44,793 nt of DNA. Origin: a candidate division WOR-3 bacterium (GTDB lineage: Bacteria > Hydrothermota > Tepidihabitantia > B3-TA06 > JALVRC01). Under the pieces are notes generated by a model that saw only the letters and a program-made list of their open reading frames with translations, had not been told where the DNA came from and searched no databases. This document shows positions 1,625 to 34,394 of this stretch, one piece after another (within the stretch, counting starts at the first letter, position 1; the number at the start of each line of letters is the position of its first letter). The position numbers were made by a program, and so were the translations under genes. Where the stretch lies: the NCBI GenBank assembly GCA_027025255.1, contig JALVRC010000046.1, positions 1 through 44,793 on the forward strand, given 5' to 3'.

Positions 1625-1640
1625 ATACAAAGGAGGATGT

Positions 1641-3260: not shown

Positions 3261-4560
3261 CACGTTTTAACAAATAAATCCCATCTTTTTTAAAAAGCGT
3301 TATATAGCCTGAACCCAGAAGAGTGTCAATATAAGTGTATCTTTTATCCCATTCAAGAGGATACACATTACCCTTTTCTAAATCAATAATGATATAAGAG
3401 GCTTTGTTAAAAGGAATAAGTGATATGCTATCTCGTTCGCAAAGATGAGGTAATATGCTATTACAAGCAGATACTGAAACATCCCCGGGAATTACACAAA
3501 TAAGACTATCAATAGTCTCTATACGTTTAAATGATTGTCTCAAAGGAAAAAAATCAGGCAAGTATAGTAAGTTAAAGAAAAAAGCAACAACAACCATTAC
3601 CCTTAAATAATCTCTCTTTACGTATCTTATGCCATTTATCATAGAAAATACGATGAACGGTATAATAAGATCACTATACTGGTAATCAAGTAAATACCTA
3701 TGAAAATAAGAGCTTGAAAGATGTTCAAAAAGAGGAACAATCGCTGGGATAAGCTCAATAGGGGCAAAAAGGATAACTCCACCGGTAGAAAGAATGATTC
3801 TTACTACACTCCATAATCTCTTAAACATAACATCTAAAGAAAATGTATTCAAACTATTAGCATAATGTATGTTCCACATTGTTTTTAGACCTCCGCCAGT
3901 ATAAGGGAAGATAAGGGAAAAAACAACTGCCACAAAGACAATTGAACCTACAATCCATACAACTAAAGGCATTATGGTCTTCTTTTCGTACGATAAATAG
4001 AGCCCCATGCCTAACCACACAACAACAGTATCCTCTTTTAACAGGGCTAAAAGTAAGAAAGGCAGAAAAAAGAATTTATTATCATTCATCAAGAGATACA
4101 GCCCCAGAAGTATTAAGGGAATCCCTATTGTTTCCGGATGAAAATCAAAAGAGAATTGAGAAAGGAAAAATTGATTAGTAATAAACAGGAAAACGATTAG
4201 TATTGTTTTTTCTTTCCCAATCTTCAGTTTCAATGATATAAGATAAACTAAATAGACACTAAAAAAAACCACGAGTGCTTTTATAATTAAAAGCAGGTAA
4301 ACAGAACCAAAAATAAATGTTAATGGGGCAAGAAGTATACTTATGGGATGAAAATGAGCAAAGAAGCCATGATGAGCAAATATCCCATCATATATCTTAC
4401 AATGATTTGAAATATTGTAAAGAATATTTGCTCTTATTCCGAGGTCATAAGCACCTGTATTGTATGTAATATGCTGAAAAATCTTTACACATAATGCAAG
4501 TATCCCTAAAATAAAGGATAGTGTTAAAAACAGGCTATGCTGTTTGAGGCTCTTTAACAC
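3238..4560 (-). CDS. DUF2079-like polytopic membrane protein
   Basis: Multiple TM helices. N-terminal YDLGIRANILYN...HHGFFAHFHPISILLAP resembles the DUF2079 signature. Converges on and overlaps the lipoprotein gene end by 23 nt. Confidence 0.55.
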   Translation of the reverse strand: MLKSLKQHSLFLTLSFILGILALCVKIFQHITYNTGAYDLGIRANILYNISNHCKIYDGIFAHHGFFAHFHPISILLAPLTFIFGSVYLLLIIKALVVFFSVYLVYLISLKLKIGKEKTILIVFLFITNQFFLSQFSFDFHPETIGIPLILLGLYLLMNDNKFFFLPFLLLALLKEDTVVVWLGMGLYLSYEKKTIMPLVVWIVGSIVFVAVVFSLIFPYTGGGLKTMWNIHYANSLNTFSLDVMFKRLWSVVRIILSTGGVILFAPIELIPAIVPLFEHLSSSYFHRYLLDYQYSDLIIPFIVFSMINGIRYVKRDYLRVMVVVAFFFNLLYLPDFFPLRQSFKRIETIDSLICVIPGDVSVSACNSILPHLCERDSISLIPFNKASYIIIDLEKGNVYPLEWDKRYTYIDTLLGSGYITLFKKDGIYLLKRVSYPSLE

Positions 4561-5785
4561 CTCTTAAAAGAAGACCTCCAATAATAAAAAACATAACAAG
4601 CGCAATTATAGAAAATCTACCCTGTCCTGTTAGTTGAGCAATTATGGCAAAAGCTAAAGGACCTATAACATTTGCAAACTTTCCGCTCATAGAGAAAAAC
4701 CCGAAAAACTCTGCTGAACGTTCTACAGGTATCAATCTTCCGAAAAGCGATCTGCTCAAAGCCTGTGCTCCTCCCTGGACGGTACCTATCACAATTGCCA
4801 AAATATAAAATTCCCAGGCGTTTTTCATAAAGAACCCCCATATCACAACACCGGTGTATACAAAAAGTGTAATAAATATGCCTGTTTTAGTCCTTATGTA
4901 TTTTGTAATAAAGCCAAAAAGCAGGGTAAATGGTATCCCGACAAACTGAGTAATAAGTATTGCTATTATGAGATCATTCATACCAATCCCTATTTCTGTC
5001 CCGTATGCAACAGCCATTTTTATAACAGTACCAATCCCATCATTGTATAACCAATAAGCAATCAAAAACTTAAATGCTTCTTTATATTTTCTTATCTCTT
5101 TAAACGTATCTACAAACCTTTTAAATCCAAGCGTTATATAATGTGATATCTTTAATTTTTCTTTCCTTTTCGTTTCTTTATAAAAAATTATCAATGGCAG
5201 TGCAAAGATAAACCACCATAATGAAACTGTTATAAAAGAATATTGCGTTGCCTTAAACTTATCATAAATACCAAAAAAAGATGGCTTAAGAATCATAAAA
5301 ACGTTCAAGGCCAATAAAAGACCACCACCAAGATAGCCTGCTGCAAACCCTGAAGATGAAACCCTATCTATATTACTTTTTGAAGATATATGGGGAAGTA
5401 TACCATCATAAAATATATTTCCTCCAGCAAATCCGATAAAACTTAGAATAAATAATACTGATGCGAAAACAATCTCTCCTTTATCAATAAACCCCATAAG
5501 GAATGTTGAAACAATACCAATAATCATAAAGAATATCAAAAAACGCTTACGTGATGTTGATATGTCACTTATTGCTCCCAATACCGGTGCAAAAATTGCA
5601 ACAATTAAAACAGCTACGAAATTACTATACGACCACCATACTGTTGAATGCACCTGAGACATGCCAGAGCCTGCTACGCTTTTATAGAAAGCCGGGAATA
5701 CTGCCGCCAATATGGTTGTTGCGTACGCAGAATTGGCCCAATCATACATTATCCATGAATTTTTTATCCTATCTCTAAAAAACAT
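4535..5785 (-). CDS. MFS transporter, UMF1/Atg22-like family
   Basis: N-terminus WIMYDWANSAYATTILAAVFPAFY is typical of UMF1. About 12 TM segments. Confidence 0.75.
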   Translation of the reverse strand: MFFRDRIKNSWIMYDWANSAYATTILAAVFPAFYKSVAGSGMSQVHSTVWWSYSNFVAVLIVAIFAPVLGAISDISTSRKRFLIFFMIIGIVSTFLMGFIDKGEIVFASVLFILSFIGFAGGNIFYDGILPHISSKSNIDRVSSSGFAAGYLGGGLLLALNVFMILKPSFFGIYDKFKATQYSFITVSLWWFIFALPLIIFYKETKRKEKLKISHYITLGFKRFVDTFKEIRKYKEAFKFLIAYWLYNDGIGTVIKMAVAYGTEIGIGMNDLIIAILITQFVGIPFTLLFGFITKYIRTKTGIFITLFVYTGVVIWGFFMKNAWEFYILAIVIGTVQGGAQALSRSLFGRLIPVERSAEFFGFFSMSGKFANVIGPLAFAIIAQLTGQGRFSIIALVMFFIIGGLLLRGVKEPQTA

Positions 5786-5817
5786 ACATAACCTCTCGTG
5801 TTTAACAGTTTAACATA

Positions 5818-6864
5818 CTAATAAAATATTAGTTGAAAAGGTACAGGTACGAATGAAAGAATAAACATCAATAATGCAAATATTAACAAAAATTTATCTC
5901 TTTTTATAAGTGGGCTTATCTCATCTACTAAAGGAGGATGCTTAAAGCCCAATAATAAAATCAAAAAAAGCCAGAACCACCATCCCTGCCATAAAAAACC
6001 CAAAAGAAATAAAATTCCTGCAACAGGATAAACAACGTATTTTCTATTTCTTGTAAGAAATCCATACAGTATATGTCCTCCATCAAGCTGTCCTAAGGGT
6101 AAAAGATTCAAGGCTGTAACAAAAAACCCAATCCATGCAGAAAGAGCTAAAGGATGAAGCATTATCTCAGTTCCAGGTGAAGTTTCTCCTTTCACAAGAT
6201 ATGTTAACAACAAAAAGATTAAAGAATCTCCTAATTTTATACCCTGAGTTGAAGAAGCAGGAACAATCGTTGAATAATGCAAGCCGATAAAGGCTGCAGG
6301 AATAGACAGTAAAAAACTCACAATAGGCCCTGCTATACCTACCTCAATAACTTCTTTTCTCGAAGGGATAAGACCTCCCATACGAATTACTGCTCCAAAT
6401 GTTCCTATCAAAGTAAAGGGAGCAGGAATAAAATACGGCAATGTAGCAGGAATATTATAGTACTTACAGACAAAATAATGACCTAATTCATGTCCTCCTA
6501 AAATAATAATTATACTCAAGGAAAATATAATTGCTTTTAAAACACCACCAAACATAAGTCCGGCAAAATACGTAGTGGCAAGTGTTAAAACAAAAAGGAT
6601 AACATTAATAATCGGTCTCTGTCTTATTGTCTTATTTGCTATAGCCTTGAGCTCAATAACGATTTCTTCTTTTTCTCTGTAAAGAAAAGGAACTATTGTA
6701 ATAGTAGCAGAGGCATCATAAATTTCTTTTATATGAGTTGCCCCATATCCAGGATAAAACGTACCTATAAGTTTCACTCCATACCTTTGAGGAATAATTT
6801 CTCTAATAGAAAAATATTTTTTTAAAGCCTCTATATACTTAGTAAAAATCACATTATCAGTCAT
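5818..6864 (-). CDS. M50 family site-2 metalloprotease
   Basis: HExxH motif (GGHELGHYF) in a TM helix and a second motif NLLPLGQLDGGHILY. Confidence 0.8.
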   Translation of the reverse strand: MTDNVIFTKYIEALKKYFSIREIIPQRYGVKLIGTFYPGYGATHIKEIYDASATITIVPFLYREKEEIVIELKAIANKTIRQRPIINVILFVLTLATTYFAGLMFGGVLKAIIFSLSIIIILGGHELGHYFVCKYYNIPATLPYFIPAPFTLIGTFGAVIRMGGLIPSRKEVIEVGIAGPIVSFLLSIPAAFIGLHYSTIVPASSTQGIKLGDSLIFLLLTYLVKGETSPGTEIMLHPLALSAWIGFFVTALNLLPLGQLDGGHILYGFLTRNRKYVVYPVAGILFLLGFLWQGWWFWLFLILLLGFKHPPLVDEISPLIKRDKFLLIFALLMFILSFVPVPFQLIFY

Positions 6865-7618
6865 TTTTTAATCCGGATAAAAAGGTATATCCACCATTCA
6901 CCCAATTATTTAGCATATCATCTAAATGTTTTATAAACCTATAAAAGGACAAAGGAGCCTTTATCCTCCCCTGTAGTTTAAAAAACAAAGGATTATATGT
7001 TTTAATAAACAAAGGAGTAAAGAAGTCTTTAAAGACCCTGATTATCTCAATGCCACTAACCTCTTCAAAGGGAGAACGCATCTCTTTCCTTCTACTTAAG
7101 CCTTTCAGAATTCTTACTCTCTCATAAGAAAACAAAATAAGCATAAGTCCCATGAAATATTCCCTGAACCTTCCAATACCTATATAATCATTTACTAAAA
7201 ACATCCCCTTTTTAGAAAGCCATTTATGGATTTTCTTATAAAGCCCATTAATATCAGGGATATGATGAAGGCTGTCCCATGCTATAACTAAATCAAAGTA
7301 GCCTTCATCAAATTCTAACTCAAGAATATTTGCATTTATGAACTGAGCCTTAAGCCCCCTATTTTTAGCTTTCTCAATACGCTTTCTGGATATATCCACA
7401 CCTATATACTCTCCTCTAATGCTTAGTTCATCTGCAAGCCAACCATCTCCACACCCTATTTCAAGAACCCTCTTAGGATTTCTCTTTTTTACAATACTTA
7501 TAAATTCTTTTTTTATACTATCAAAGAATATAGAGACTATTCGTTCATATTGCCAGGGATTCTGGATAAGGGTCTCAGGACTATCCCAGTACTCTGCCTC
7601 TTTTAAGAATAAATCCAT
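6857..7618 (-). CDS. class I SAM-dependent methyltransferase
   Basis: Motif I VLEIGCGDGWLA, followed by DLVIAWDSLHHI. Confidence 0.75.
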   Translation of the reverse strand: MDLFLKEAEYWDSPETLIQNPWQYERIVSIFFDSIKKEFISIVKKRNPKRVLEIGCGDGWLADELSIRGEYIGVDISRKRIEKAKNRGLKAQFINANILELEFDEGYFDLVIAWDSLHHIPDINGLYKKIHKWLSKKGMFLVNDYIGIGRFREYFMGLMLILFSYERVRILKGLSRRKEMRSPFEEVSGIEIIRVFKDFFTPLFIKTYNPLFFKLQGRIKAPLSFYRFIKHLDDMLNNWVNGGYTFLSGLKND

Positions 7619-7643
7619 AAAAAGCAGGGGCTAAGCCCCTGCT
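7619..7643 (-). terminator. GC-rich hairpin (9-bp stem AGCAGGGGC/GCCCCTGCT, 3-nt loop) with short T tract
   Basis: Stem 7623-7631 / 7635-7643. On the minus strand it follows the stop of the 7651-8049 gene. Its TTTT tail runs directly into the ATG at 7618. Confidence 0.5.
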
Positions 7644-7650
7644 CAATTTT

Positions 7651-8049
7651 TTAGAAGTTAAATTTTGTTGATAGAGCATAAATGCCAAAGGGCATTTTCC
7701 ATGCTTTACCGGAAAGAGATTGAATTATACCTATTATTGCAAGCACACCTAAACCCAGAAGACCTACAATCCACAAAATACCAGAAAGTGTAAGACAAAT
7801 AGGGAATCCAAAAGACATAACTAAAGCAGTATCAATCGCACCTGCGATTACACCTATTATTACCATTACAATTATAAATCCAAGATAATATAGAAGCAGT
7901 GCAAGCCCCTGTTTTGCATGAAACTGTGAATATTTATTCTCTTTCTGAGCTAAAAGAGGAATTAATAGGAACAGACCAAAATATGAAAGCCATGCAAGTC
8001 CCTTTCCTTCATTTATTTCTTCCTCACTAAACGTTAATTCTTCTGACAT
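7651..8049 (-). CDS. DUF4870-like small membrane protein
   Basis: LAWLSYFGLFLLIPLLAQKENKYSQFHAKQGL matches the DUF4870 pattern. Has 3-4 TM helices. SD GGAGG upstream. Confidence 0.55.
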   Translation of the reverse strand: MSEELTFSEEEINEGKGLAWLSYFGLFLLIPLLAQKENKYSQFHAKQGLALLLYYLGFIIVMVIIGVIAGAIDTALVMSFGFPICLTLSGILWIVGLLGLGVLAIIGIIQSLSGKAWKMPFGIYALSTKFNF

Positions 8050-8057
8050 AAAACCTC

Positions 8058-9272
8058 CTATTTATTTAATTTGTTTTTTATAACCCTTGCAAGTCTTTTT
8101 ATACCTTCTTCTATCATTTCAGGCGTTGCATTAGAAAAATTAAGCCTCATTGTATTCTTACCTGAGCCATCAGGGTAGAAAGAGCTCCCAGGCACAAAAG
8201 CGACCTTTTCTTTAACAGCCTCGTTAAAAAGCTCTTTTGTATCAATGTGCTCAGGCAGCTCAACCCACAAAAACAACCCACCTTCTGGCTTTGTCCATTT
8301 TACTCCAGAAGGGAAATAACGCTCAAGTGTATCAAGCATCACATCCCTACGCTCCTTATACATATATCTTATCTTCTTTATATGCGTTTTCAAAAGACCT
8401 CTACCACATATATCATAAGCAATATACTGAGAAAGCGTACTTGTATGCAAATCTGCTCCCTGCTTCACCTGAACCAGTTTTTGAATAACTACTTCAGGAG
8501 CAACAATCCAGCCTAATCTTAATCCAGGGGCAAGGGTTTTAGAGAATGTACTCATATAAAGAACATTCTCCTTATAAAGGGAGACTAACGGACTTAAATC
8601 TTTACCTTCATAACGCAACTGTCCGTAAGGATCATCTTCAACAATAAATACATTAAACCTTCTGGCAAGTTCTACTATTTTATGCCGTTTTACTTCTGAA
8701 ATGGTAACTCCAGCAGGATTATGGAAATTTGGCAGTATGTACATAAATTTAATGTCTGGAACTCTTAAAAGCGTTTCTTCCAATTTATCCGTATCAAGTC
8801 CGTCTTCAGATATTGGAACTGTTATGTACTCCGGAAGATAGGGATTCCAGGCTTGAAGAGCTCCCAGATATGTTGGGGCAGTTGTCAATACCTTATCTTG
8901 CTCTGTAATAAAGAGTTTCCCAACAATGTCAAGTGCTTGCTGTGAACCATTAACAGGCAAAATATTTTTAGGCTCTGCAGGAACACCGTACTTCTGCATG
9001 TTTTCAGCAAGAAACTCCTTAAGAGGTGGATATCCTTCAGTAGGACTGTATTGAAACATTTGTTTCCCCTTTCGAGGAATCAAATATCTACATGCTTCTT
9101 CAAGCTCTCTTAAAGGGAAAGATTCAGGAGCAGGTAATCCCCCTGCAAGAGAGATTATATCAGGCTCCATCGTAACCTTTAAAATTTCTCTAATAGCTGA
9201 AGGCCTAATATTCTTTGCTCTTTTAGCATATTTCTTTTCCCAATCAGGCATATAAGTCATCATTACCTCCAT
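8058..9272 (-). CDS. PLP-dependent class I/II aminotransferase (2-aminoadipate/LysN-like subgroup)
   Basis: GGLPAPESFP, NPAGVT and SKTLAPGLRLGWIVAP (PLP lysine region). The true start is more likely ATG 9263 or 9260, because the GGAGG at 9266-9270 lies inside the first codons of the track ORF. Confidence 0.8.
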   Translation of the reverse strand: MEVMMTYMPDWEKKYAKRAKNIRPSAIREILKVTMEPDIISLAGGLPAPESFPLRELEEACRYLIPRKGKQMFQYSPTEGYPPLKEFLAENMQKYGVPAEPKNILPVNGSQQALDIVGKLFITEQDKVLTTAPTYLGALQAWNPYLPEYITVPISEDGLDTDKLEETLLRVPDIKFMYILPNFHNPAGVTISEVKRHKIVELARRFNVFIVEDDPYGQLRYEGKDLSPLVSLYKENVLYMSTFSKTLAPGLRLGWIVAPEVVIQKLVQVKQGADLHTSTLSQYIAYDICGRGLLKTHIKKIRYMYKERRDVMLDTLERYFPSGVKWTKPEGGLFLWVELPEHIDTKELFNEAVKEKVAFVPGSSFYPDGSGKNTMRLNFSNATPEMIEEGIKRLARVIKNKLNK

Positions 9273-23826: not shown

Positions 23827-24225
23827 CTAAAAGTCAAGTAATTTTTTTAGTGTATCCATTATATCATTTTTTGTCAAAAATTGTATTTCCATCCCTTCAA
23901 TAAAAACATACTTTCTCCCATCTCTCTTCTCTGGTTCATCAACAGAAAAAATGTCAGGAATCATTCTCAATCCCAAACCCACAAAATATTTACTAAAAGA
24001 AAGTACTATAAAGAAATTGTCTTTGGCATAGTTCCTTTTTAACAGAAGAGATGTATTCACCAGATAGAGTGGTTTGTTCATATACTGTAAGACCTTAAAC
24101 ATGTCGCCTTTTTCTCTTGGTAAAGATGTAATTTCAAACTCATTAATATCCTCAACTCTAATAACATCATACTTGGGAATAGCATAAAGAGTCTCACTTA
24201 CCTCAAAAATAAATACATCAATCAT
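23827..24225 (-). CDS. CheW-like coupling protein
   Basis: FIFEVSETLYAIPKYDVIRVEDINEFEITSLP ... FFIVLSFSKYFVGLGLRMIPDI follows the CheW-domain pattern. ATGA overlap with the upstream ORF. Confidence 0.5.
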   Translation of the reverse strand: MIDVFIFEVSETLYAIPKYDVIRVEDINEFEITSLPREKGDMFKVLQYMNKPLYLVNTSLLLKRNYAKDNFFIVLSFSKYFVGLGLRMIPDIFSVDEPEKRDGRKYVFIEGMEIQFLTKNDIMDTLKKLLDF

Positions 24226-24521
24226 TGCTCACCCCTTATAATAATGAAAAATGCCTTTTTGTTCTCAAACGCAATATGTGTCAATGGGTAAGCCTTTATA
24301 AAATCCGGGATCTTAAATATTCTTTCTAATTCAATATCAACAATCCCTGCGACACTTACTCCTCTTATATAAGTATTATCCTTAAAAACTACAAAAATAT
24401 TACCTTCTCCCCTTAATAAAGGCCTTACATCAGTAGAAACCTGTTCATGAGTTTTTAAAATCTCCTCAACTTTAACCCCTATTATAATCCCCTCATCTGT
24501 TTTCACCCTTAATATCTTCAT
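24222..24521 (-). CDS. 99-aa protein, possibly a truncated CheW-like domain
   Basis: Translationally coupled to cheA and to the next ORF by 4-nt overlaps. The two ends weakly resemble the first and last strands of CheW, and the middle segment is missing. Confidence 0.3.
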   Translation of the reverse strand: MKILRVKTDEGIIIGVKVEEILKTHEQVSTDVRPLLRGEGNIFVVFKDNTYIRGVSVAGIVDIELERIFKIPDFIKAYPLTHIAFENKKAFFIIIRGEQ

Positions 24522-27115
24522 ACAGTAGCATACCTCCTTACTATAGACATCAAATCATCCCTTGTGTAAGGCTTTGTCAGAAAATCTTCAGCACCGTAAC
24601 CATAAACTTCAGTCTTATGCTGCAAACCGCTTCGAGCTGAAATTACAACAATATGTATATTCCTTGCCCATGAAATATTCCTTACGGCTTTTATAAGTTC
24701 AATTCCATTCATAACAGGCATCTCCAGATCAGTAATTACAAGATTATATTTTTTGTTCTTTATCTTTTGTAAAGCTTCTCTCCCATCAGAAGCAGTTTCT
24801 ACAGAATATTTTTCCTTTAAAAGCATTCTTGAAATAAAACGCCTAACACTTGGAGAATCATCCACAACAAGTATATCGCCCTTCTGTGAAGGTTCATCCA
24901 ATTCTTTGATATTTTCCTCGTCATAAGGAGAAACTTCTTTCTTAACCTGAATCTCTTTAATCTTTTCAAGACTTACAAGCCTTACAGGATTAAGAATTAA
25001 TACAACTCTTCCGGTACCACTTATAGTAGCACCTGAAAAATACTTTATCCTGCTAACTGGCAAAGGCAGGTATTTAATAAGTATTTGCTCCCTTTCAAGA
25101 ATATTATCCACTTTTATCCCAACTTTCCCCTCAGGATACCGAACAACTATAATAAAGCCTCTCTTACCATTCTTCTGTGAAGAATCTATCTTAAGGATAT
25201 CTGATAACCCTACAAATGGGATCAAAACATCCCTTAACCTGAAATAATGCAATCCAGCAATTTTACTAATTTTATCCTCACTAAATTCTTCCACTCGTAC
25301 AATTGACGAAATAGGGAAAAGAAATATCTGATTCCCTTCCTTTACATAAACTGCTTCACTAATACCTATTGTTATAGGAAAGCTCAAAATAATACGAATC
25401 CCTTCATTCGTTTTTGATTCTACATCTATACTTCCATTTAGCTCCTCAACAGTATTTTTCACAATATCAAGACCAACACCTCTACCTGAATAAAAACCAG
25501 CTTTATCCATTGTTGTAAATCCAGGATTAAATAAAAACTGGATTAGCTCATCGTGAGAAACCCTGCTCTCTGGAGCTAAAAGCCCTTCCTCTACTGCTTT
25601 GTCCTTTATAACATCATAATCGAGCCCTCTTCCGTCATCATTAATCTCAAGTACTACCCTGTTTATGGTAGAATAAGCAAGCAATGTAATATTCCCTATC
25701 GCTGGTTTACCTTTTTCTATTCTGTTTTCTTTAGTCTCTATTCCATGCTCTACTGCATTTTTTAAAAGATGAAGGAAAGGATCTATCATCTTATTTATAA
25801 TTCTTTTATCAATTAACGTCTCTTCGCCTTTTATTATAATATTTACCTTTTTCCCCAGTCTGTCAGCCATATCACGAATTACACGCTTGAAGCGTCCAAA
25901 TAACTGAATCACCGGGACCATCCTTATATGAAGAACCTCCTCCTGCAGCTTATTAACCAATAGTGAATATCTATTAGTCTCTTCTTCTACTACATGTAAC
26001 TTATTTTCAAAAGATGCAGTATAATCTTTAAGCCCTATAATAACATTATTCAGCCTTCTCTCAAGATTATCATAACGTGAAAAAGTTGCAAGTTCTGCAG
26101 GAGAAAGAGAACTTTTATAAAGGGTAAGTTCCCCCTTAAGGATTTCAAAACCTCTATATATTTCCATTATCTGTTTTAACAATCTTTCAACATCATTACC
26201 AAGGTTAAACAATTTACCGAATTTATTTAAAAGAAGGGATTTATTAATATTCAGCTCTGAAGAAAGGTTTAAAAGGCTGTCAAGCCTATCAAGAGGAATT
26301 CGTATATCCTTCTCTCTTACGCTTTCTACTGAAGGTTCCTCCTCTAACTGGCCGATATCCATTTCTGTCGTTTTAATATGTTCTTTAATACGCTCTAATG
26401 CTCCTATTATTTCTTGTTTAACAATACCTGTATCAAGACCATCCCTCTTTATTCTATCAATCATTCCTCTAATTAAATCAATTCCAGTAAATACTGTATT
26501 AAAATCTTCCTTAGAAAGTTGTAATTCGCCTTTCTCCATAGCTTCAAAAATATCTTCTAAAAGATGAGCCACAGAAGAAAGCTCCATAAACCCCAGCATA
26601 GCTGCTGAGCCTTTAATGGTATGTGCAATCCTCATTAATGAATGAAGATCCTCTTTTTGAAGATTATTCTCAATATCTACAATAATACTGTCAAGCTCGT
26701 TAAGATGCTCTCTTACTTCCTCCATAAATATTTCGAGTAGTTCTGAATCAATACCTTCATCCTCTTTTTCTTCTTCCATTTTTTTCTCTGTCTTTTCCTC
26801 TTTTGATACTTCCCCTTCCTTTATACCTTCAGAAACGTGTTTAAGTGGTTGAACTAACTTATTCTTAGTATCTTCTATGCTTTCAACAGTTCTTATCGTA
26901 TTTTTCAATATTTCTTTTGCCCTATCCTTTTCATTGTTGAGCAAATATTTATTAACTTCAAGTAATACATTGGTAATTTCACTGTCAAAACTATCTTTAA
27001 AACCATCTATAATAGCTAATAAAATAGAAGATATTGTTTCTTTATCAAAACCCTTTTCATCAATTAAATGAATAAGATCCTTTAATTGTATTAAAAATTC
27101 AGCTCTCTCAGTCAT
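24518..27115 (-). CDS. cheA: hybrid chemotaxis histidine kinase CheA with C-terminal receiver (ChpA/PixL-like)
   Basis: HPt HTIKGSAAMLGF, dimerisation IPLDRLDSLLNLSSEL, N box HLLKNAVEHGIE, G1 DDGRGLD, G2 SGRGVGLD, a CheW-like domain, and REC ILVVDDS...VITDLEMPVMNG...TKPY. Confidence 0.9.
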   Translation of the reverse strand: MTERAEFLIQLKDLIHLIDEKGFDKETISSILLAIIDGFKDSFDSEITNVLLEVNKYLLNNEKDRAKEILKNTIRTVESIEDTKNKLVQPLKHVSEGIKEGEVSKEEKTEKKMEEEKEDEGIDSELLEIFMEEVREHLNELDSIIVDIENNLQKEDLHSLMRIAHTIKGSAAMLGFMELSSVAHLLEDIFEAMEKGELQLSKEDFNTVFTGIDLIRGMIDRIKRDGLDTGIVKQEIIGALERIKEHIKTTEMDIGQLEEEPSVESVREKDIRIPLDRLDSLLNLSSELNINKSLLLNKFGKLFNLGNDVERLLKQIMEIYRGFEILKGELTLYKSSLSPAELATFSRYDNLERRLNNVIIGLKDYTASFENKLHVVEEETNRYSLLVNKLQEEVLHIRMVPVIQLFGRFKRVIRDMADRLGKKVNIIIKGEETLIDKRIINKMIDPFLHLLKNAVEHGIETKENRIEKGKPAIGNITLLAYSTINRVVLEINDDGRGLDYDVIKDKAVEEGLLAPESRVSHDELIQFLFNPGFTTMDKAGFYSGRGVGLDIVKNTVEELNGSIDVESKTNEGIRIILSFPITIGISEAVYVKEGNQIFLFPISSIVRVEEFSEDKISKIAGLHYFRLRDVLIPFVGLSDILKIDSSQKNGKRGFIIVVRYPEGKVGIKVDNILEREQILIKYLPLPVSRIKYFSGATISGTGRVVLILNPVRLVSLEKIKEIQVKKEVSPYDEENIKELDEPSQKGDILVVDDSPSVRRFISRMLLKEKYSVETASDGREALQKIKNKKYNLVITDLEMPVMNGIELIKAVRNISWARNIHIVVISARSGLQHKTEVYGYGAEDFLTKPYTRDDLMSIVRRYATV

Positions 27116-27117
27116 TT

Positions 27118-28854
27118 CTAAAGCTTAAATCTTTCCACGTTCTTTACAAGCTTATCAGCTAAATCTTTTAATTTTTCGGATAATTCAGTTGTCTGTTTAC
27201 TCATATCCATAGCTTTTTCTGATAAAGTTCTAATGTCTCTTGTCTGATCTGCAACCTGTTTAGTAACTTCTGCTTCTTTACGGAATTTATCAGAGGTTTC
27301 TCTGATTTTTTCAGTAGCACGTTTAACAGCTTCAAGGATTTCAACCATAACCTGTCTTGCTTCAGATGCAAATTTGGCACTATCTTCCACCTTTTTTGTT
27401 CCAACATCCATAGTCTCCACTGCTTCTCCTGTCTCAGACTGAATTCCTTTAATCAGGGTAGCAATATCCTTTGCCGCTTTTGAAGAACGTTCTGCTAATT
27501 TCCTTATTTCTTCAGCAATCACAGTAAAGCCTCTACCGGCTTCTCCAGCTCTCGCTGCTTCTGTAGCAGCATTTAACGCAAGTAAATTAGTCTGTCTTGA
27601 AATTTCCTCTATTACTCCTACTATTTCACCGATCTCAATAACAGTTTCTCCAAGCCCTTTAATTTTGACAGCGGTTTCTTCTACTATATCACGTATATTT
27701 TCAATTTCCTCAATAGAACGTACAACGTTAGTTGAACCCTTTTCAACAAGAGTAGAGGTCTCCTCTGCTGTTTTTGCAGTATTTTCAGTGTCTTCAGCAA
27801 GAGAAATAATGTCTTTTTCCAGGGCTTCCATCATATTTGAAATACCTTCTACTTTTTTCACCTGTTCAGCTGATAACTCAGTAATTTCTAATCCAGCAGC
27901 TCTAATACTCTTAACCCCTTCATCCATCCCAAAAGCTGTAGTTTTCGTTTCCTTAAACAAACTTCCAAGCTCATCCATCATCATATTGAATGCATCAGCA
28001 ATTGAACCTAACCTATCAGCAGTAACTTCAAGCCTTTTTGTAAAATCACCCATAGCAGCATCTGATATAATCTCCATAAAACGTATTAATCGTTTATTCA
28101 TTGCATCTCTCTCAGCCTCTGTTTCCACAAAACCCTTCATTTTTTCCATTGTTTCATTCAATGTACGAGCTAAGAACCCTATCTCATCCTCTCCTTCAAC
28201 CTGAGCTTTAACATCAAGATTTCCTCTTCCCATCTCCTCTGCTACCTCAATTGTTTTTGTCAAAGGCTCAATAGTATAATTGGCTACAAGATATAAAATA
28301 CCCCCTAAGACTACAAGAGCTATTAAAAATATTAAGGATGCGTTTAAGATATAACCTAAAACCAATTTTGCCGGAGGGACAAAAGCACCTACATGAATTA
28401 TTGCTTGTCTTTCGCCAATTGTTACAGGCATTGCAATATCTATTATCCCATTATCAATAGAAATCGCCTCTTTCTTAAGATTCGCTTCGTTTTTAAATGA
28501 TATCTCTTTAAAGCTTGGAGGAATTTTAAACGTATGAGCCAACAAACTACCATTTTTATCTTTTATAACTATATGCCTTATAAGCTTGGGATTATGTCTT
28601 TGAACAGCCTTTATGTGCTTCTCAACCTCATCAATTGTCATCTTATTCTCTTCTATCTCCTTTTTCAAGCTATTAACAGTTGACCTTACAATCTTCTTTC
28701 TGTTATCTAAAAGCTGATTATTGATAGCGAATGAAGAAAAGAATATAATAGTAAACCCAAAAATAGCAAGCACAACTAAAGGAATTAGAAACACCTTTGT
28801 TTTAAAACTTAAATTCGTTATCCATCTTTTTAAAAAATTACTACCTTCTGCCAT
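27118..28854 (-). CDS. methyl-accepting chemotaxis protein (2 TM, periplasmic domain, HAMP, MA domain)
   Basis: Signalling tip [61 protein letters not shown]...[21 protein letters not shown] at 28859-28865. Confidence 0.9.
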
Positions 28855-28872: not shown

Positions 28873-28917
28873 TTCTGCAGTACCTTTGCAAACATAGTTT
28901 GCAAAGGTACTGCAGAA
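28873..28917. repeat. perfect inverted repeat: 21-bp stem, 3-nt loop
   Basis: 28873-28893 (ttctgcagtacctttgcaaac) is the exact reverse complement of 28897-28917, with loop ata. It fills the 69-nt gap between the barrel gene stop and the MCP start. No T tract follows on the transcribed strand. Confidence 0.9.
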
Positions 28918-28923
28918 TAATAC

Positions 28924-30054
28924 CTATTTTATACTAAGGCCTACTATTAATTCAGGCCTAAGTATAGTAAACTTATCATAACCCTCATAGGCTTCGTCTG
29001 AATAAGACCTGTTATAGTATCTGAACCTGGTCATAAGCCAGGAAGGACCAACACTCACCTTGTATGCAATAAATCCGTATAAGGTATTCAAACCAACCTT
29101 TGCAGTATCCTGAAACGCATCATTGTAATATGGAACACGACTATACATACCATACTCAAATCCAAAATGGATACTACCAGGACCAACCTTTGGAGACACA
29201 AACCTGAATTTAACGAGCAACCCATTACTCTTTACAAAATCTGATACCGGAACTATATTACTGTCACTCACTTCATACATTGTATATGCAACCTGGAGAT
29301 TGGTCTTTGAACCCCTCAATCCAAGATAAAAATCAGGACCTACTGTCTTCCTGTACGCTATCTTACCGGTAGATGCTCCTAAATCCTCTTCTCCAAACAG
29401 TATCACTGGACCTATCTTAAACGTATTTGTACCTGAACTTATCCTTAATCCAAAATCAAGCATGTCATATCCATATGTTTTAACTGTATCAATCTCTGTT
29501 GAATTATTCCCTAACTCTCCCTTTGTAAGGATAAACGGATTAATCTCAATATTCTTCATAGGCTTGAACCCAAACCACAAACCATCTCCTGAAACATGCT
29601 TATAAACCTTAAAATAATCACCAACTACATTCTTATTCCAGGGATTATAGTGCAGGTCAAAAATACCACTGTTAGGAAGAGGTATCCTACCAACCTTAAA
29701 ACAGAATTTCTCATTCTTGTAAGCAATAAAAAATCTATCAAAGCCAATGTTATATCCTTTTAAAGAATCATTAAGAACTACACAGGCTGCTGGTGTTAAA
29801 AATGTCATTCTCGTTCCCATAATCCAGCCATTCTCATACTTTACATGAACGCAAACATACATAGAGCCTAACACATCAATGTCCATTGATTTCATATCTG
29901 GCAGTCTTAAAGAATCTACATCATTACCATCCTGCATAGTTTTCATTACATCTCTTAATAAAAACCATCCACCACTCTTTATATTTACTTCTGGCTCCGC
30001 AAACAAACCCCCAATAGCCCCCATTATAAGCAAAACCGTTCCTACTACCCTCAT
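28924..30054 (-). CDS. secreted, beta-strand-rich protein; predicted outer-membrane beta-barrel
   Basis: Signal peptide MRVVGTVLLIMGAIGGLFA/EPE. Aromatic-rich alternating hydrophobic strands throughout (FGFEYGMY, LYGFIAYKV, TRFRYYN). Strong SD. No family recognised. Confidence 0.4.
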   Translation of the reverse strand: MRVVGTVLLIMGAIGGLFAEPEVNIKSGGWFLLRDVMKTMQDGNDVDSLRLPDMKSMDIDVLGSMYVCVHVKYENGWIMGTRMTFLTPAACVVLNDSLKGYNIGFDRFFIAYKNEKFCFKVGRIPLPNSGIFDLHYNPWNKNVVGDYFKVYKHVSGDGLWFGFKPMKNIEINPFILTKGELGNNSTEIDTVKTYGYDMLDFGLRISSGTNTFKIGPVILFGEEDLGASTGKIAYRKTVGPDFYLGLRGSKTNLQVAYTMYEVSDSNIVPVSDFVKSNGLLVKFRFVSPKVGPGSIHFGFEYGMYSRVPYYNDAFQDTAKVGLNTLYGFIAYKVSVGPSWLMTRFRYYNRSYSDEAYEGYDKFTILRPELIVGLSIK

Positions 30055-30063
30055 TTTACCTCC

Positions 30064-30957
30064 TTATTTTTTGTTTTTTATAAGTATTCTTAAAGCCTCT
30101 TCAAGCCTCCTTATCGCCTTTGACAAAAGCCCTATTTCATCATTCTTAAGGTAAACTGGTGCTGGACCAAGTTTATCCATCTCCAATTTACTCATCCTTT
30201 CAACCCTTTTTGTATATGCCACTATAGGACGTGCTATACCAAAAGATAAAATCCATGCAAAAAACAAAGAAAGAATAAGAGCTGCAATAGCCATTATTAG
30301 GAAAAATGAATCTGCTTCTTCTCTTCTTTGTTTAAACTTCTGCATAAGTTTCCCGAAACCCAATCCCATCTCATCCATATATACAGTTAATAAAACCATA
30401 AGACCACCCTTACCAACAGGATAACTTACAAGAAAGGCTTTCTTTGACTCAGCATCATAATATCTTGAAACAGTATCATCAAATGACAAACTTTTAAGTA
30501 TCTTTACTAAGCCTGGAGTTCCTTTAGCTTTCTCTATAATGTTTTTTGTTTCCCAATCTCTATTGGGATGGACAACAACCAATATACTATCATTATCAAT
30601 AAATCTAACAAGATAAGCAAAACCATGCTTTCCCAGTCCTTCTTTAACCCATATATGTTCGTTAACAATTGTCCTTATTGTATCATTAAATGCCTGCTCT
30701 GATATTCTACCACGTTCTTTAGCTATATAGGCTATTTCAATCTCCCTTGCAATGCTTTTAGCAATCGTACTAACTCTTTCAGCCATTAATAACTTTTCAT
30801 TCTTTAAATACTGAGACTGCAAATTTAGCATCATTTTAGGAAACAAAATAAATCTCAATAAAATATAGCCTATTACTAAGAATCCTGCTGTTATTAAGAA
30901 CATAAATAAAAAAACCTTTGTAAATAATGTAATCTTTGGCTTCATATTAACCCCCAA
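30064..30957 (-). CDS. TM - single-Cache-like periplasmic domain - TM - HAMP protein with no output domain
   Basis: N-terminal TM. Periplasmic GFAYLVRFIDNDSILVVVHPN...YYDAESKKAFLVSYP...LLTVYMDEM is sCache_2-like. Second TM, then HAMP RPIVAYTKRVERMS...NDEIGLLSKAIRRLEEAL, ending about 10 aa later. Confidence 0.6.
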   Translation of the reverse strand: MGVNMKPKITLFTKVFLFMFLITAGFLVIGYILLRFILFPKMMLNLQSQYLKNEKLLMAERVSTIAKSIAREIEIAYIAKERGRISEQAFNDTIRTIVNEHIWVKEGLGKHGFAYLVRFIDNDSILVVVHPNRDWETKNIIEKAKGTPGLVKILKSLSFDDTVSRYYDAESKKAFLVSYPVGKGGLMVLLTVYMDEMGLGFGKLMQKFKQRREEADSFFLIMAIAALILSLFFAWILSFGIARPIVAYTKRVERMSKLEMDKLGPAPVYLKNDEIGLLSKAIRRLEEALRILIKNKK

Positions 30958-31813
30958 TAAGCTTTTTGATTGTCTCTTTTAATAATTTAAAAGCCTTTGC
31001 AAGTATACCAATCTCATCCGAGCTTTTAATATCAATATCTACATTAATATCACCTTTACTAAACCTATCAGCAATGCCTGTGAGTTTTTCAATAGGGGTA
31101 ACAATATTCCTTGATATATATATACCAGCTAAAGCTCCTCCAGCTATAAGAATAATCCCTATCACTATCGCAATCATTCTCAAAGAGCTAAATCCTTTTT
31201 TGTTCTGTAGAGATATATCTTCAATAGGTTTTGTAAATTGGTCCAGATAAGCAGTTGAGACAACCATATAGTTCCTGGTACCTGTATACTCACAGACCAT
31301 AAATTTATCCCTTTTTTCACCTGTTTCCTCTTGCCATTTGTAAAAACCTTCTACTCTGTCGTTATGCGGCGTTGCTTTTTTAAAGATTAGCCAGAAGTCA
31401 GGGAGCTTATCCTTAAGCTTATACATGTTAAAACCCTTGCTTAACCTCTTCTGCGGATGCCATTGCATTAAAAGAGAATCCTCTCCAAAATACTCCCATA
31501 CTGCAGTATAACCAGTTTTTAAAACAGGTTGAACAGCAATCTTTCCAAAATATTCATCATTTAACAATTCTTTTGTACTTTTCGGGAAATACGCTAAATA
31601 GTCCCTAATATGAAAACTTACTACTCTATTTGTCATTTCCACATTCCTTATTACATGGGTTTTCAAAAGCTCCTCTTCCATATTAGTTACGCTATCTACC
31701 CAGGGAAAAGCAGTTGATATTAAATAGAAAAGAAAAACACCTGCGGGAAGAACTGGAACTATAGCAAAGGCCCACAGAAATTTTGTTTTTATACTTTTAA
31801 TTTTCTCAGCCAT
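30947..31813 (-). CDS. TM - single-Cache-like periplasmic domain - TM - HAMP protein with no output domain
   Basis: YTAVWEYFGEDSLLMQWHPQ...EGFYKWQEETGEKRDKFMVCEY...VVSTAYLDQF is sCache_2-like. HAMP NIVTPIEKLTGIADRFSKGDINV...SDEIGILAKAFKLLKETI. Ends right after the HAMP. Overlaps the next gene by 11 nt. Confidence 0.65.
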   Translation of the reverse strand: MAEKIKSIKTKFLWAFAIVPVLPAGVFLFYLISTAFPWVDSVTNMEEELLKTHVIRNVEMTNRVVSFHIRDYLAYFPKSTKELLNDEYFGKIAVQPVLKTGYTAVWEYFGEDSLLMQWHPQKRLSKGFNMYKLKDKLPDFWLIFKKATPHNDRVEGFYKWQEETGEKRDKFMVCEYTGTRNYMVVSTAYLDQFTKPIEDISLQNKKGFSSLRMIAIVIGIILIAGGALAGIYISRNIVTPIEKLTGIADRFSKGDINVDIDIKSSDEIGILAKAFKLLKETIKKLIGG

Positions 31814-31822
31814 AATACCTCC

Positions 31823-32320
31823 TTAAAGACTTTTTAAAAATTCTTCTTTTAATTGAGGATCTGCTATCTCCTTTAAAATCAATTCCTTTAATTTTTGAAT
31901 TGCACTTGCAGGAACATTATCTCTTGTTAAAGACATCTCTTTTAATACATTATCAATAATTGCGGCAGCTGCAAACCCAACTGCATTCTTAAGCGCATTT
32001 TCAATCCTTTCTATATTTACATAGTCCATATCTGCTTCACTCAAATTCAAAAGCACTTTTGTACTCGGGATATCAGAATTTATACGAGAAGATTTTATAC
32101 CCTTATCTAACGTATATTGTCCTGTTTCAAACCTTAAGACCTCCTCTATAACACCCCTTCCACATTTGTCTCTAATTTCAGAACATACAATATCACCGTT
32201 ATCAAAATATATCTTATACAAATGCTCCCCCTGCTTTATAAACAAGGAACCAGTAAATCTATCTGTATATAACTTAGTTAATAAATCCCGTAGTTCCTTA
32301 TTACTTTTAAAAAAAGGCAT
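31823..32320 (-). CDS. stand-alone DUF4388 (PATAN-like) domain protein
   Basis: FTGSLFIKQGEHLYKIYFDNGDIVCSE...GRGVIEEVLRFETGQYTL matches the DUF4388 pattern. Helical C-terminal half. Confidence 0.5.
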   Translation of the reverse strand: MPFFKSNKELRDLLTKLYTDRFTGSLFIKQGEHLYKIYFDNGDIVCSEIRDKCGRGVIEEVLRFETGQYTLDKGIKSSRINSDIPSTKVLLNLSEADMDYVNIERIENALKNAVGFAAAAIIDNVLKEMSLTRDNVPASAIQKLKELILKEIADPQLKEEFLKSL

Positions 32321-32731
32321 CTATTCTCCTTTCTTTAGATATTCAAATAGATAATCAATATCTAAAACAAGATATACCTGATCTTCTTTATTAAGTATAC
32401 CCTTAAAAAATGGCGCGTCTTCATCAGGAAAAAAATTAGGAAGAGAACCCATATCCTTTTCTTCAAAATTAATAAGACTTCCTACTTCATCAGCCCTCAA
32501 AACCCATCTATCTTTTTTGTGCTCTATAAGTATATACCAGTTTCCCTTTTTATACTTAAGCTGTAAAGGATTACCAACAACAACAATTGTCCCTTCGTAA
32601 TTAATTACTCCATCGACAAAAGAAGGAGCTTGAGGTACAGGAGTAATCTCCGCTTCCTCCAGGATTTTCTCTACTTTATCCACACGCACAAGATAATTCT
32701 CTTCACCAATTTTTAATAGAATATGCTGCAT
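32321..32731 (-). CDS. cheW: CheW coupling protein
   Basis: LLKIGEENYLVRVDKVEKILEEAEITPVPQAPSFVDGVINYEGTIVVV. Confidence 0.75.
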   Translation of the reverse strand: MQHILLKIGEENYLVRVDKVEKILEEAEITPVPQAPSFVDGVINYEGTIVVVGNPLQLKYKKGNWYILIEHKKDRWVLRADEVGSLINFEEKDMGSLPNFFPDEDAPFFKGILNKEDQVYLVLDIDYLFEYLKKGE

Positions 32732-32733
32732 AG

Positions 32734-33099
32734 CTATCCAATAATTTTCTTCACTTCTGCCAAAAGAAGCTCTTTATTAACTGGTTTTGTAATATAAGCT
32801 GCTCCACCTATTTTTTTACCCCAGAATTTATCAACATCCTCACCCTTACTTGTAACAAAAATTATGGGGATATTCTTTGTTTCATCATCCTTTTTAAGCT
32901 CTCTTGCAATATTGAATCCATCTATATCAGGAAGTATTACATCAAGCAAAATAAGATCAGGATGTTTCTCAATTGCCGTATTCTTACCTTCTTTTCCGTT
33001 AAAGGCCTCCAGTAAAATTACATCAAATATTTTTAAAAAACTCTTAATCTCCTCCATTTCGGTTTTTGAATCTTCTATAATTAATATTGTTTTACTCAC
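32734..33099 (-). CDS. single-domain response regulator (CheY/PilH/PixH-like)
   Basis: ILIIEDS, LILLDVILPDIDG, FVTSK, ITKP. GTG start with AAGGAGG upstream. Confidence 0.85.
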   Translation of the reverse strand: MSKTILIIEDSKTEMEEIKSFLKIFDVILLEAFNGKEGKNTAIEKHPDLILLDVILPDIDGFNIARELKKDDETKNIPIIFVTSKGEDVDKFWGKKIGGAAYITKPVNKELLLAEVKKIIG

Positions 33100-34394
33100 C
33101 CCTTTCCTCCTTTGTTTTTTATTATTCTATAAATTTCTTCTGGTTTAAAAGGCTTTGATATGTAACCATTAGCTCCAACTAATTGAGCTTTCATCCTATC
33201 AAAAAAGCCCTTTTTAGAGGTTAAAAAATATACCTGAGTATCTTTTAATCCTGCTATCTTTCTTATTTCTCTGCATATTTCATAACCATCAATCCCTGGC
33301 ATAACAATGTCAAGAAATATTATGTCAGGGGAAAACTCTTTCGCTTTATCAATACCCAAAACCCCTTCAGAAGCCTCAATAATCATAACATCCTTAAAAT
33401 GTTTCTGGATCATTTTTTTTACTATTCTTCTTGTAACTAAACTATCATCAATAATAAGAATAGTAAAAGCTTTCTTATCTTTTAAACTTAGAATTTCTTT
33501 TTCAAGAAGAGTTTTTATCCCTCTAAAAACCGTCTCCTGTTTTAATCCTATTTTATCAGCAATATCTTCTATGTTTATTTCTTTATCTATAGCCAATAGA
33601 ATCTTTAATTCAATAGGATGCAAAACAGGCATTTCAACCTTTTTTATAGGCTTTTTATAGATAATGCCGTTGTAGTTAAGGTTTTCACAGCCCTCTTCAC
33701 ACAAAAAGTCCCTGAAAATGGTATCCTTTAATCTCATTGCTTCAAGCATTGCAAAATCAACAGGTAAATCTATCATTTTTACAGGAGGATCTTCATAATC
33801 CATTTTCCTGAAAAAAAGTTGACCTTCATGCATAAAAATCTGAAAAAAAGCGTTTTGTCCTTCCTGGATGGAAGATTCTGCATATTCAAGAACTCCCTCC
33901 TGTAAGAAAAACCGAACGTTAATACCTGGCAAATTCACAAAGAAAACACCGCTTATCTTATTCTGAGAACACATCTCCATATAGGAAGCAAAATCATCAT
34001 TACCAATCTCTCCACTTATATACTGTTCATCTTCCATTATGTTCTTTACAAGTAAACTAAGTTCAGAAATTGTAAAAGGCTTCTCAAGTATATAACCAAT
34101 TCCGAGATTGGATGCTTCTTTCTTTATATTTTCATCCAAAAAACCACTTATCAATATTATAGGGATATCCTTCTTGAAACTCCGTACTTTCCTTATAAAT
34201 TCAGTCCCATACATATCTGGAAGCCTATAATCAACTATCAATAGCTTTATTTGAAATCTTTTTAACATGAAATATTGTATTGCCTCTTCACCGCTCTGGG
34301 CAGAAATAATCTTATATCCCTTATTTGTAAGATAAGATGTATACATTTTTCTTATATATGATTCGTCATCAACAAGAAGGATTTCTTCAGCCAT
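33096..34394 (-). CDS. REC - DUF4388/PATAN - wHTH-like - REC response regulator (PatA/PixG-related)
   Basis: N-terminal REC (ILLVDDES, LLIVDYRLPDMYG, ILEKPF). Centre ISGVFFVNLPGINVRFFLQEGVLEYAES is DUF4388-like. LHPIELKILLAIDKEINIEDIADKIGLKQETVFRGIKTLLEKEIL is wHTH-like. C-terminal REC (ILIIDDS, IIFLDIVMPGIDG, LTSK, ISKPF). Confidence 0.7.
   Translation of the reverse strand: MAEEILLVDDESYIRKMYTSYLTNKGYKIISAQSGEEAIQYFMLKRFQIKLLIVDYRLPDMYGTEFIRKVRSFKKDIPIILISGFLDENIKKEASNLGIGYILEKPFTISELSLLVKNIMEDEQYISGEIGNDDFASYMEMCSQNKISGVFFVNLPGINVRFFLQEGVLEYAESSIQEGQNAFFQIFMHEGQLFFRKMDYEDPPVKMIDLPVDFAMLEAMRLKDTIFRDFLCEEGCENLNYNGIIYKKPIKKVEMPVLHPIELKILLAIDKEINIEDIADKIGLKQETVFRGIKTLLEKEILSLKDKKAFTILIIDDSLVTRRIVKKMIQKHFKDVMIIEASEGVLGIDKAKEFSPDIIFLDIVMPGIDGYEICREIRKIAGLKDTQVYFLTSKKGFFDRMKAQLVGANGYISKPFKPEEIYRIIKNKGGKG

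Follow-up and report, generated by a model that had tools for sequence, protein, structure and literature searches.

The window analyzed here, a 44,793-nucleotide (nt) contig of a candidate division WOR-3 bacterium (JALVRC010000046.1, positions 1 to 44,793; assembly GCA_027025255.1), carries on its minus strand a tightly packed chemosensory (che) operon that runs from 34394 down to ~23827, as judged from its open reading frames (ORFs) and a Pfam scan. Within this operon lie two adjacent genes, here called receptor A (30947-31813, 288 amino acids, aa) and receptor B (30064-30945, 293 aa), whose products are predicted to consist of a transmembrane segment, a periplasmic single-Cache (sCache) sensor, a second transmembrane segment and a HAMP domain, and to end there. 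Directly upstream, at 31823-32320, lies the gene for a 165-aa protein that combines a PATAN domain with a STAC-like/DUF8082 domain. The original prediction had described A and B as output-less sensors that act in trans, with a nearby methyl-accepting chemotaxis protein (MCP) as their partner. Its observation is confirmed and its interpretation partly supported: both proteins are genuine sensor modules without an output, the MCP is probably the wrong partner, and the conserved partner of A and B is most likely the PATAN-STAC-like adaptor gene just upstream, as synteny and comparison with known systems suggest.

Receptor A shows two hydrophobic segments in hydropathy analysis (aa ~10-37 and ~205-235) on either side of its sensor (aa ~40-205, nt ~31199-31696). 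Its HAMP domain is recognized by Pfam (aa 233-282, nt 30968-31117, E 6.4e-12) and is followed by six residues and the stop codon. Pfam matches to Cache domains are weak and lie under the cut-offs (18.2 and 16.4 bits). An AlphaFold2 model (predicted local distance difference test, pLDDT, 89.9) contains a transmembrane helix, an alpha/beta sensor, a second transmembrane helix and a HAMP domain, and Foldseek identifies the sensor as an sCache fold (TlpB 3ub6, probability 1.0, target TM-score 0.64), with further matches of probability 1.0 among TlpB 3ub6-3ub9, 5g4y, 2qhk and 4k08. Receptor A retains 28 of the 54 columns conserved in its family and has a single Cys in its translation; a word-index homologue search returned only five relatives.

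Receptor B has the same layout in a strongly diverged form, with hydropathy-defined transmembrane segments at aa ~4-42 and ~209-243, a sensor at aa ~43-208 and a divergent HAMP domain at aa ~237-288 (nt ~30082-30237), after which the protein stops within five residues. The longest ORF for B begins with a TTG at 30957 and would encode 297 aa, and the 11-nt overlap with A reported in the original prediction rests on that start. An ATG at 30945, preceded by GGGGG and located 1 nt past the TAA of A (TAAtATG), is more likely; from it B would be 293 aa long, and the two genes would be separated by a 1-nt spacer, so that the tight coupling stands and the overlap does not. No Pfam family matches B at E<=0.1, and the word-index search found zero relatives. 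BLASTP aligns 192 residues of B with A, including the HAMP domain, at 23% identity (E 2e-7). B keeps 21 of the 54 family-conserved columns, with strong divergence in both sensor and HAMP; in the pocket region, columns with a family-wide conservation above 95% (Q, T, W and K) carry other residues, its branch in the family tree is very long, and it has no Cys. A and B are old, diverged paralogues and, as had been proposed, not the products of a recent duplication. Neither ORF is broken or shortened relative to the family model, and a ribosome-binding site can be read from the sequence before each of them.

To place the two proteins in a family, we compared them with the Protein Data Bank (PDB) and with receptor genes of other genomes. 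A profile of both window proteins and five database relatives matches the engineered transmembrane receptor Af1503 (4CQ4) with an E-value of 1.4e-26 over profile positions 54-298, which cover sensor and HAMP. Receptor A alone matches 4CQ4 in phmmer (1.3e-4, residues 123-283, part of the sensor and HAMP); the best PDB matches of receptor B are Af1503 HAMP constructs (E 0.02), and its direct Af1503 match is confined to HAMP. A non-circular hidden Markov model (HMM) was built only from the receptor genes of 80 foreign bacterial loci (L013-L092), found in a scan of species-representative genomes and all from Thermodesulfobacteriota or 'Deltaproteobacteria'. This HMM gives E-values of 1e-42 for A and 1e-13 for B (HMM positions 54-309), aligning B to residue 290 of 293 (294 of 297 from the TTG); the remaining HAMP proteins encoded in the genome align only with its HAMP part. 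It also retrieves the Archaeoglobaceae orthologues of Af1503, at 1e-23 to 1e-36. Because one foreign-locus HMM scores A, B and the archaeal orthologues in this way, both window proteins are assigned, on sequence homology, to the Af1503-like family of effector-less receptors. They share with that family the transmembrane-extracytoplasmic sensor-transmembrane layout, HAMP as the sole cytoplasmic domain with the C-terminus just behind it, homology that reaches past HAMP into the sensor, and genomic coupling to a STAC-like domain through the gene directly upstream. Neither A nor B matches the MA (MCPsignal) domain, which the neighboring MCP matches at 1.2e-36 in the same scan, or the HisKA (DHp) and HATPase_c domains in Pfam, and they are not histidine kinases. 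The HMM analysis of both proteins, proposed as a check with the original prediction, and the structure prediction for A support the predicted layout.

Most members of this family end after HAMP. An exhaustive representative search returned 543 cluster representatives at E<=1e-30, and the architectures of the best 154 were tabulated. Short transmembrane-sensor-transmembrane-HAMP proteins account for 29 of these 154, and the same layout with an N-terminal MJ0042-type zinc ribbon accounts for 62; all 91 proteins of these two groups stop within 20 residues of HAMP. C-terminal extensions occur in 35, of which 26 are at least 170 aa long and the rest 29-102 aa, several of them coiled-coil-like, and the remaining 28 are large, carry repeated sensor domains and lack HAMP. 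The post-HAMP tail is 0-14 residues long in all 80 bacterial loci, and in the 16 Archaeoglobaceae orthologues (324-354 aa) the HMM aligns to within ~3 residues of the C-terminus. The window receptors, with stops 0-6 residues past HAMP, follow this norm. Beyond the stop of A lies the N-terminal transmembrane segment of B, and beyond that of B a signal peptide; no remnant of an output domain was found after either stop in the ORFs or by Pfam. As the original prediction stated, A and B have no kinase, MA or GGDEF output, and as sensor modules of this kind they would have to signal in trans. Since the point of termination is shared family-wide, a sequencing error at the stops is very unlikely, and by the same comparison so is pseudogene decay. 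For annotators, this is a warning that HAMP-terminated proteins form a functional class and should not be taken for truncations.

Two other architectures among the 154 merit description. The 62 zinc-ribbon proteins carry a CxxC...CxxC ribbon of MJ0042 type and a long acidic linker before the first transmembrane segment, with the HAMP end kept; the ribbon would give these receptors, which have no other output, a second element in the cytoplasm. The 28 large proteins (for example P0008, P0011, P0012, P0040 and P0149) are 722-2046 aa long, two fragments of ~250 aa excepted, and have the same Cache-type sensor domain in 2-4 tandem copies.

In the adaptor, the PATAN/DUF4388 domain (PF14332) spans aa 9-93 (nt 32042-32296; 29.9 bits against a cut-off of 25, E 6.2e-7) and was seen again in a whole-genome scan. 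Behind it, the putative STAC-like/DUF8082 helical domain (aa ~103-164, nt 31829-32014) includes the motif helix LKNAVGFAAAAIIDNVL at residues ~105-125. The Pfam scan alone, which had no DUF8082 model, did not recognize this domain. DUF8082 (Pfam PF26309) was instead detected with a custom HMM built, like one for PATAN, from the 80 foreign loci, and the C-terminal ~62 residues of the adaptor are its sole match in the 1.69-Mb genome (5.3e-10). The adaptor aligns with 24 proteins of PATAN-wHTH-DUF8082 type, whose central winged helix-turn-helix (wHTH) is missing from it. Its AlphaFold2 model (pLDDT 81.5) has C-terminal helices at 86-128, 138-151 and 155-164, and the sole high-probability Foldseek match in the PDB is Af1502 (5a1q; probability 0.96, target TM-score 0.64, root-mean-square deviation 2.4 A, 61 columns, E 0.57). 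The DUF8082 HMM also matches the archaeal 68-aa ORFs described below at ~1e-4. STAC domains (Af1502, CbrA) are small bundles of four helices, ~60-70 residues in length, whose LGPx(x)A motif connects helices 1 and 2. A motif of the form (L/I/M)GPxA recurs in these domains, as MGPIAP in Desulfobacterota DUF8082 (VMGPIAPIIVDDKI), as IGPIAK or VGPAAK in the Archaeoglobaceae ORFs, and in the motif helix of Af1502 itself (EIGPIAKIFLNKAM).

The neighborhoods of family members point to the same partner. A DUF8082-bearing gene lies directly upstream of the receptor on the same strand in 73 of the 80 bacterial loci and within 2.5 kb in another 4; in 3 it is not assessable at a contig edge, and in none is it absent. 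A PATAN(x2)/DUF2226-like gene follows directly downstream of the receptor in 50 of the 80. A Syntrophorhabdaceae metagenome-assembled genome (L002) has the order PatA_N+DUF8082, two Cache-HAMP genes and DUF2226, locus L012 adds a REC-PATAN gene to the same set, and Pfam tables of two complete chromosomes list PatA_N+DUF8082, Cache+HAMP, DUF2226, REC-PatA_N and Roadblock. In Archaeoglobaceae, an Af1502-type ORF (MITYKKLLDELKKEIGPIAKIFL...) of 67-85 aa, mostly 68, is found directly 3' of the receptor in 15 of 16 loci, usually with a 4-nt overlap, and a convergent DUF2226 gene with a PATAN-like N-terminus (Pfam 2e-68) in 12 of 16. Genes of the che type occur within 10 kb of the receptor in 0-1 of the 80 bacterial and 1 of the 16 archaeal loci; a survey of this linkage, proposed with the original prediction, thus finds it to be rare. 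The neighbor that stays constant across these 96 loci is a gene for a STAC-like/DUF8082 domain, in most cases fused to PATAN/DUF2226 genes or located next to them, and not an MCP gene. The architecture, the family membership, the end after HAMP and the linkage to a STAC-like domain extend from Archaeoglobi to Thermodesulfobacteriota to the window genome.

Several of these loci show further features. The module adjoins type IV pilus genes (PilMNOP-secretin, minor pilins, PilY1) in the two complete Thermodesulfobacteriota chromosomes, at 1-8600 and 20164-20954 of L093 and at 1239-7063 and 13111-13533 of L094, and one of these chromosomes also has REC-PATAN and Roadblock genes; single-sequence phmmer finds pilus genes near the receptor in 9 of the 80 loci. 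Among the archaeal loci, the Af1502-type ORFs at 1266-1472 of L104 and 3579-3785 of L106 have VGPAAK in place of IGPIAK and fall under the HMM threshold, and in L104, L105 and L106 the place of DUF2226 as convergent neighbor is taken by another gene, of 294-303 aa. In L012, the 5' end of the PATAN-DUF8082 ORF (2-130) resembles a fragment of an unrelated enzyme (…GVVKGIADYGNCMGIPTVAGE…) joined to PATAN, a fusion that may have been created by chimeric assembly at the end of this metagenome contig.

The rest of the operon is chemosensory in content. Its first gene (33096-34394) encodes a regulator with receiver (REC) domains in the order REC-PATAN-wHTH-REC (Pfam Response_reg 3.6e-48 in two stretches, DUF4388 3.2e-5, weak HTH matches), which may act downstream in a PATAN-based pathway. 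A CheY-like single-domain receiver (32734-33099), identified by reading the ORF translation and not by Pfam scan, and a CheW (32321-32731, Pfam CheW 6.8e-19) separate it from the adaptor. Downstream of receptor B, an orphan ORF (28924-30054) encodes 376 aa with a signal-peptide-like N-terminus; no Pfam family matches it, and a search of 5.8 billion proteins found only the protein itself. We rejected its equation with the 377-aa DUF2226 gene of L002: the product of that gene is a cytoplasmic protein containing PATAN-like repeats, whereas the orphan ORF encodes a signal peptide, does not match PATAN and has no homologues. The 69-nt gap that follows contains a perfect palindrome read from the sequence (CTGCAGTACCTTTGCAAAC..GTTTGCAAAGGTACTGCAG, ~28873-28917) with no T-run after it. 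It could divide the operon into two expression units, either as a hairpin for RNA processing or attenuation or as a site bound by a protein. Next come the complete MCP (27118-28854; Pfam MCPsignal 1.2e-36, HAMP 3.9e-14 and a weak sCache_4 match of 3e-4), which has its own sensor and HAMP as had been noted, a CheA with a C-terminal receiver (24518-27115, 865 aa, from its translation) and, as the last gene of the che block, a CheW-like protein (23827-24225; Pfam CheW 1.1e-4, just under the cut-off). The location of A and B in a che operon therefore holds, and their direct adjacency to the MCP gene does not, since the orphan ORF and the palindrome lie between. Pfam scans of nine operon ORFs, with CheY and CheA outside the scan, found no protein-kinase domain, and the Pfam scan found no recognizable transporter in the operon.

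Two described systems are close to these receptors, and they run against the original view that split signaling has no established precedent. Af1503-like receptors are C-terminally shortened and translationally coupled to small STAC proteins; Af1502, coupled in this way to Af1503, is a relative of the CbrA STAC domain and contains an LGPx(x)A motif (Korycinski, Hartmann, Lupas; PMC4834066). Cryo-electron microscopy (cryo-EM) of CbrA shows STAC docked beneath the membrane domain, where it serves as a coupling element (bioRxiv 10.64898/2026.03.10.710862). Like the window receptors, Af1503 of Archaeoglobus fulgidus (4CQ4, 2L7H; Af1502, 5A1Q) has the transmembrane-sensor-transmembrane-HAMP order; HAMP is its sole domain in the cytoplasm, the protein ends right behind it, and the receptor gene is closely coupled to a small helical domain with a G-P/x-x-A motif helix. 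Af1502 is a stand-alone protein of 68 aa encoded downstream of its receptor, whereas the window STAC-like domain is fused behind PATAN and encoded upstream; the window further differs in its two diverged tandem receptors, its che-like operon setting and the loss of the motif proline. In Pseudomonas azotoformans, an output-less Cache_heme-HAMP (CHH) receptor binds an operon-encoded Ser/Thr kinase with nanomolar affinity, and two small helical bundles of the kinase, with the helices IGPLARFLV (IGPLARFLVRKSLN) and IGPIARIVV (IGPIARIVVSRALR), contact each HAMP subunit in the cryo-EM structure (Deshpande, Xu, Dunleavy, Zhulin, Crane; bioRxiv 10.64898/2026.05.25.727664). These recognition helices have the same motif as Af1502, Desulfobacterota DUF8082 and, in degenerate form, the window adaptor. 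The CHH paper (bioRxiv 10.64898/2026.05.25.727664) does not mention STAC, Af1502 or PATAN, and our literature search found nothing on DUF8082 or on PATAN linked to HAMP-only receptors. The window system may be mechanistically akin to the CHH-kinase complex, in that a Cache-transmembrane-HAMP receptor with no intrinsic output is bound in trans, through its HAMP domain, by a same-operon output protein with DUF8082/Af1502-like helical bundles. It is not a CHH system: the CHH sensor is a heme c Cache with a CXXCH motif, for which A with one Cys and B with none do not qualify, and each chain of the CHH partner, a kinase, has two bundles, whereas the proposed window partner is a non-enzymatic PATAN adaptor with one bundle, in an operon with no kinase or phosphatase gene among the nine ORFs scanned with Pfam.

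Two further comparisons concern the PATAN side. The Thermodesulfobacteriota triads of PATAN-wHTH-DUF8082, receptor and DUF2226/PATANx2 genes (L013-L092) share with the window the receptor family, the adaptor domains and their order and orientation, with the adaptor upstream and the receptor downstream; we found no publication on them. In contrast to these triads, which are found near type IV pilus or glycosyltransferase genes, the window module lies in a che operon of an unrelated organism, and its receptor is duplicated. In PixG/PixE-type regulators PATAN is a protein interaction output module, and the cyanobacterial Pix/Tax phototaxis systems resemble the window in having a che-like operon with a PATAN-REC regulator (bioRxiv 10.1101/2021.06.11.447907). 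Their PATAN acts on the type IV pilus motor (PilB1/PilC), whereas the window genome shows no ATPase of the T2SSE family, and HAMP-only receptors or STAC-like domains are not reported from them.

Taken together, we consider it fairly probable that A and B are Af1503-type receptors that signal through the upstream PATAN-STAC-like adaptor into a PATAN-based che-like pathway. In this scheme, a ligand bound by the periplasmic Cache sensors of the two receptors would change the conformation of the HAMP four-helix bundle, which is their entire cytoplasmic part. The absence of an enzymatic output would be explained by its supply in trans: the conserved G-x-x-A helix in the STAC-like domain of the adaptor would clamp each HAMP subunit and read its rearrangement, and the PATAN domain would relay the signal by protein-protein contact. 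The recipient may be the che-like pathway of the operon (REC-PATAN-wHTH-REC, CheY, CheW, MCP, CheA-REC) or another PATAN/Roadblock target. From synteny and by analogy with the CHH receptor-kinase complex we infer a physical contact between HAMP and the STAC-like domain. The direction of signal flow and the cellular target are proposals as well, and A and B may form homodimers or a heterodimer.

Receptor-STAC systems of the Af1503/Af1502 type are known; what distinguishes this bacterial case is the fusion of the STAC-like domain to PATAN, the duplication of the receptor and the location of the module inside a che-like operon. Af1503 has been a structural model of HAMP signaling since 2006, and to our knowledge what it signals to is not known. 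The combination of the near-universal linkage between receptor and STAC-like domain across the 96 archaeal and bacterial loci, the cryo-EM view of IGPxA helices on HAMP and the PATAN fusion in the window yields a testable hypothesis, namely that a docked STAC-like bundle reads HAMP while the domain fused to it (PATAN, a kinase or none) sets the output.

A number of observations weigh against this PATAN-STAC-like reading. The motif of the window adaptor is degenerate (AVGFAAAA, in AVGFAAAAIIDNVL), with the G and A retained and the P replaced. The high E-value of the Foldseek match to Af1502 (0.57) is owed to the tiny size of the domain, and in a search of the PDB with the bacterial DUF8082 profile, 5a1q ranked second with a weak E-value (0.037) over the motif helix only. 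The adaptor has no wHTH, unlike all its Desulfobacterota homologues, and no PATANx2/DUF2226 gene follows the receptors. The 80 bacterial loci belong to one phylum and were chosen via two peptide patterns, so that their synteny in part reflects shared ancestry. Receptor B, in which many conserved positions of the sensor and of HAMP are lost, could have ceased to work as a sensor. Korycinski et al. proposed for STAC a role in the regulation of solute transport and not in motility-type signaling (PMC4834066), and in the 92%-complete genome no T2SSE-family (pilus) ATPase, flagellin or FliG was found, which leaves no evident motility output.

Among the alternatives, a split chemoreceptor, in which A and/or B would join the MCP array and modulate the MCP through transmembrane or HAMP contacts to add ligand specificities to a single kinase-control module, was the mechanism first suggested. 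It draws on the presence of A and B in one tight operon with the MCP, CheW, CheA-REC and CheY, on the HAMP and transmembrane helices as dimerization surfaces, and on the che-operon setting of this family member, which most relatives do not share. However, the MCP already has a sensor and HAMP of its own, the orphan ORF and the long palindrome stand between its gene and the pair, and the relatives are accompanied by the STAC-like gene constantly and by che genes almost never; a literature search that was not systematic turned up no precedent for HAMP-only proteins in MCP dimers. We regard this mechanism as unlikely, although in this operon A and B might touch the MCP in addition. A role in transport is less probable again and in our view very unlikely. 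Here the receptor-STAC pair would control a membrane transport component, perhaps the adjacent secreted orphan protein, instead of a che-like pathway, in keeping with the enrichment of transport genes near Af1503-like receptors, the link that STAC makes between SLC5 transporters and signaling (PMC4834066), and the 376-aa signal-peptide ORF directly after receptor B. Against it, the operon has no recognizable transporter, the orphan ORF belongs to no family and has no homologues, and the STAC-like domain is fused to PATAN in an operon that is otherwise chemosensory.

Two other explanations concern the receptors themselves. An obligate A/B heterodimer, with B as a degenerate, non-ligand-binding subunit and a HAMP bundle with two non-equivalent docking faces, would be in keeping with the 1-nt spacing of the genes, the replaced pocket-region residues and the long branch of B, and with the recurrence of tandem receptor pairs at L002, L012 and L048. 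Yet ~76 of the 80 loci carry a single receptor gene, which makes the homodimer the default, and the family tree indicates a recent duplication in L002 and old pairs in L012 and the window, so that tandems arose independently; we consider an obligate heterodimer doubtful. The notion that A and B are decayed remnants, either leftovers of truncated MCPs or histidine kinases or products of stops introduced by assembly errors, could appeal to the C-terminal extensions in 35 of the 154 best representatives and to the lack of a Pfam HAMP call in B. It is largely refuted and highly improbable given that the HAMP end is kept as the majority state across two domains of life, that both genes are full length and intact with a ribosome-binding site each and no output remnant behind them, and that the model of A is confident.

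The genome as a whole (1.69 Mb, 92% complete) encodes 8-9 PATAN proteins and 4 Roadblock/LC7 proteins. An unlikely extension of the PATAN-STAC-like reading is that an asymmetric A/B heterodimer recruits the adaptor, via two non-equivalent faces, into a chemosensory array and so provides a kinase-independent input to a PATAN/Roadblock polarity-type switch. Such an arrangement would mean that a che-like pathway takes its input from a novel type of receptor and has a non-motility output, in an organism apparently devoid of flagella and type IV pili. The Af1503-like receptor family was found in 0 of 60 genomes of the same order or class, and a CheA comparable to that of the window in 0 of 13 genomes of the same order, with distant CheA homologues in genomes of the same class. 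The RecA sequence, 61-69% identical to those of Bacillota, WOR-3, Nitrospinota and other groups, gave no placement in a phylum. Because of these two absences, the whole operon appears to be lineage-specific or acquired, possibly by horizontal transfer.

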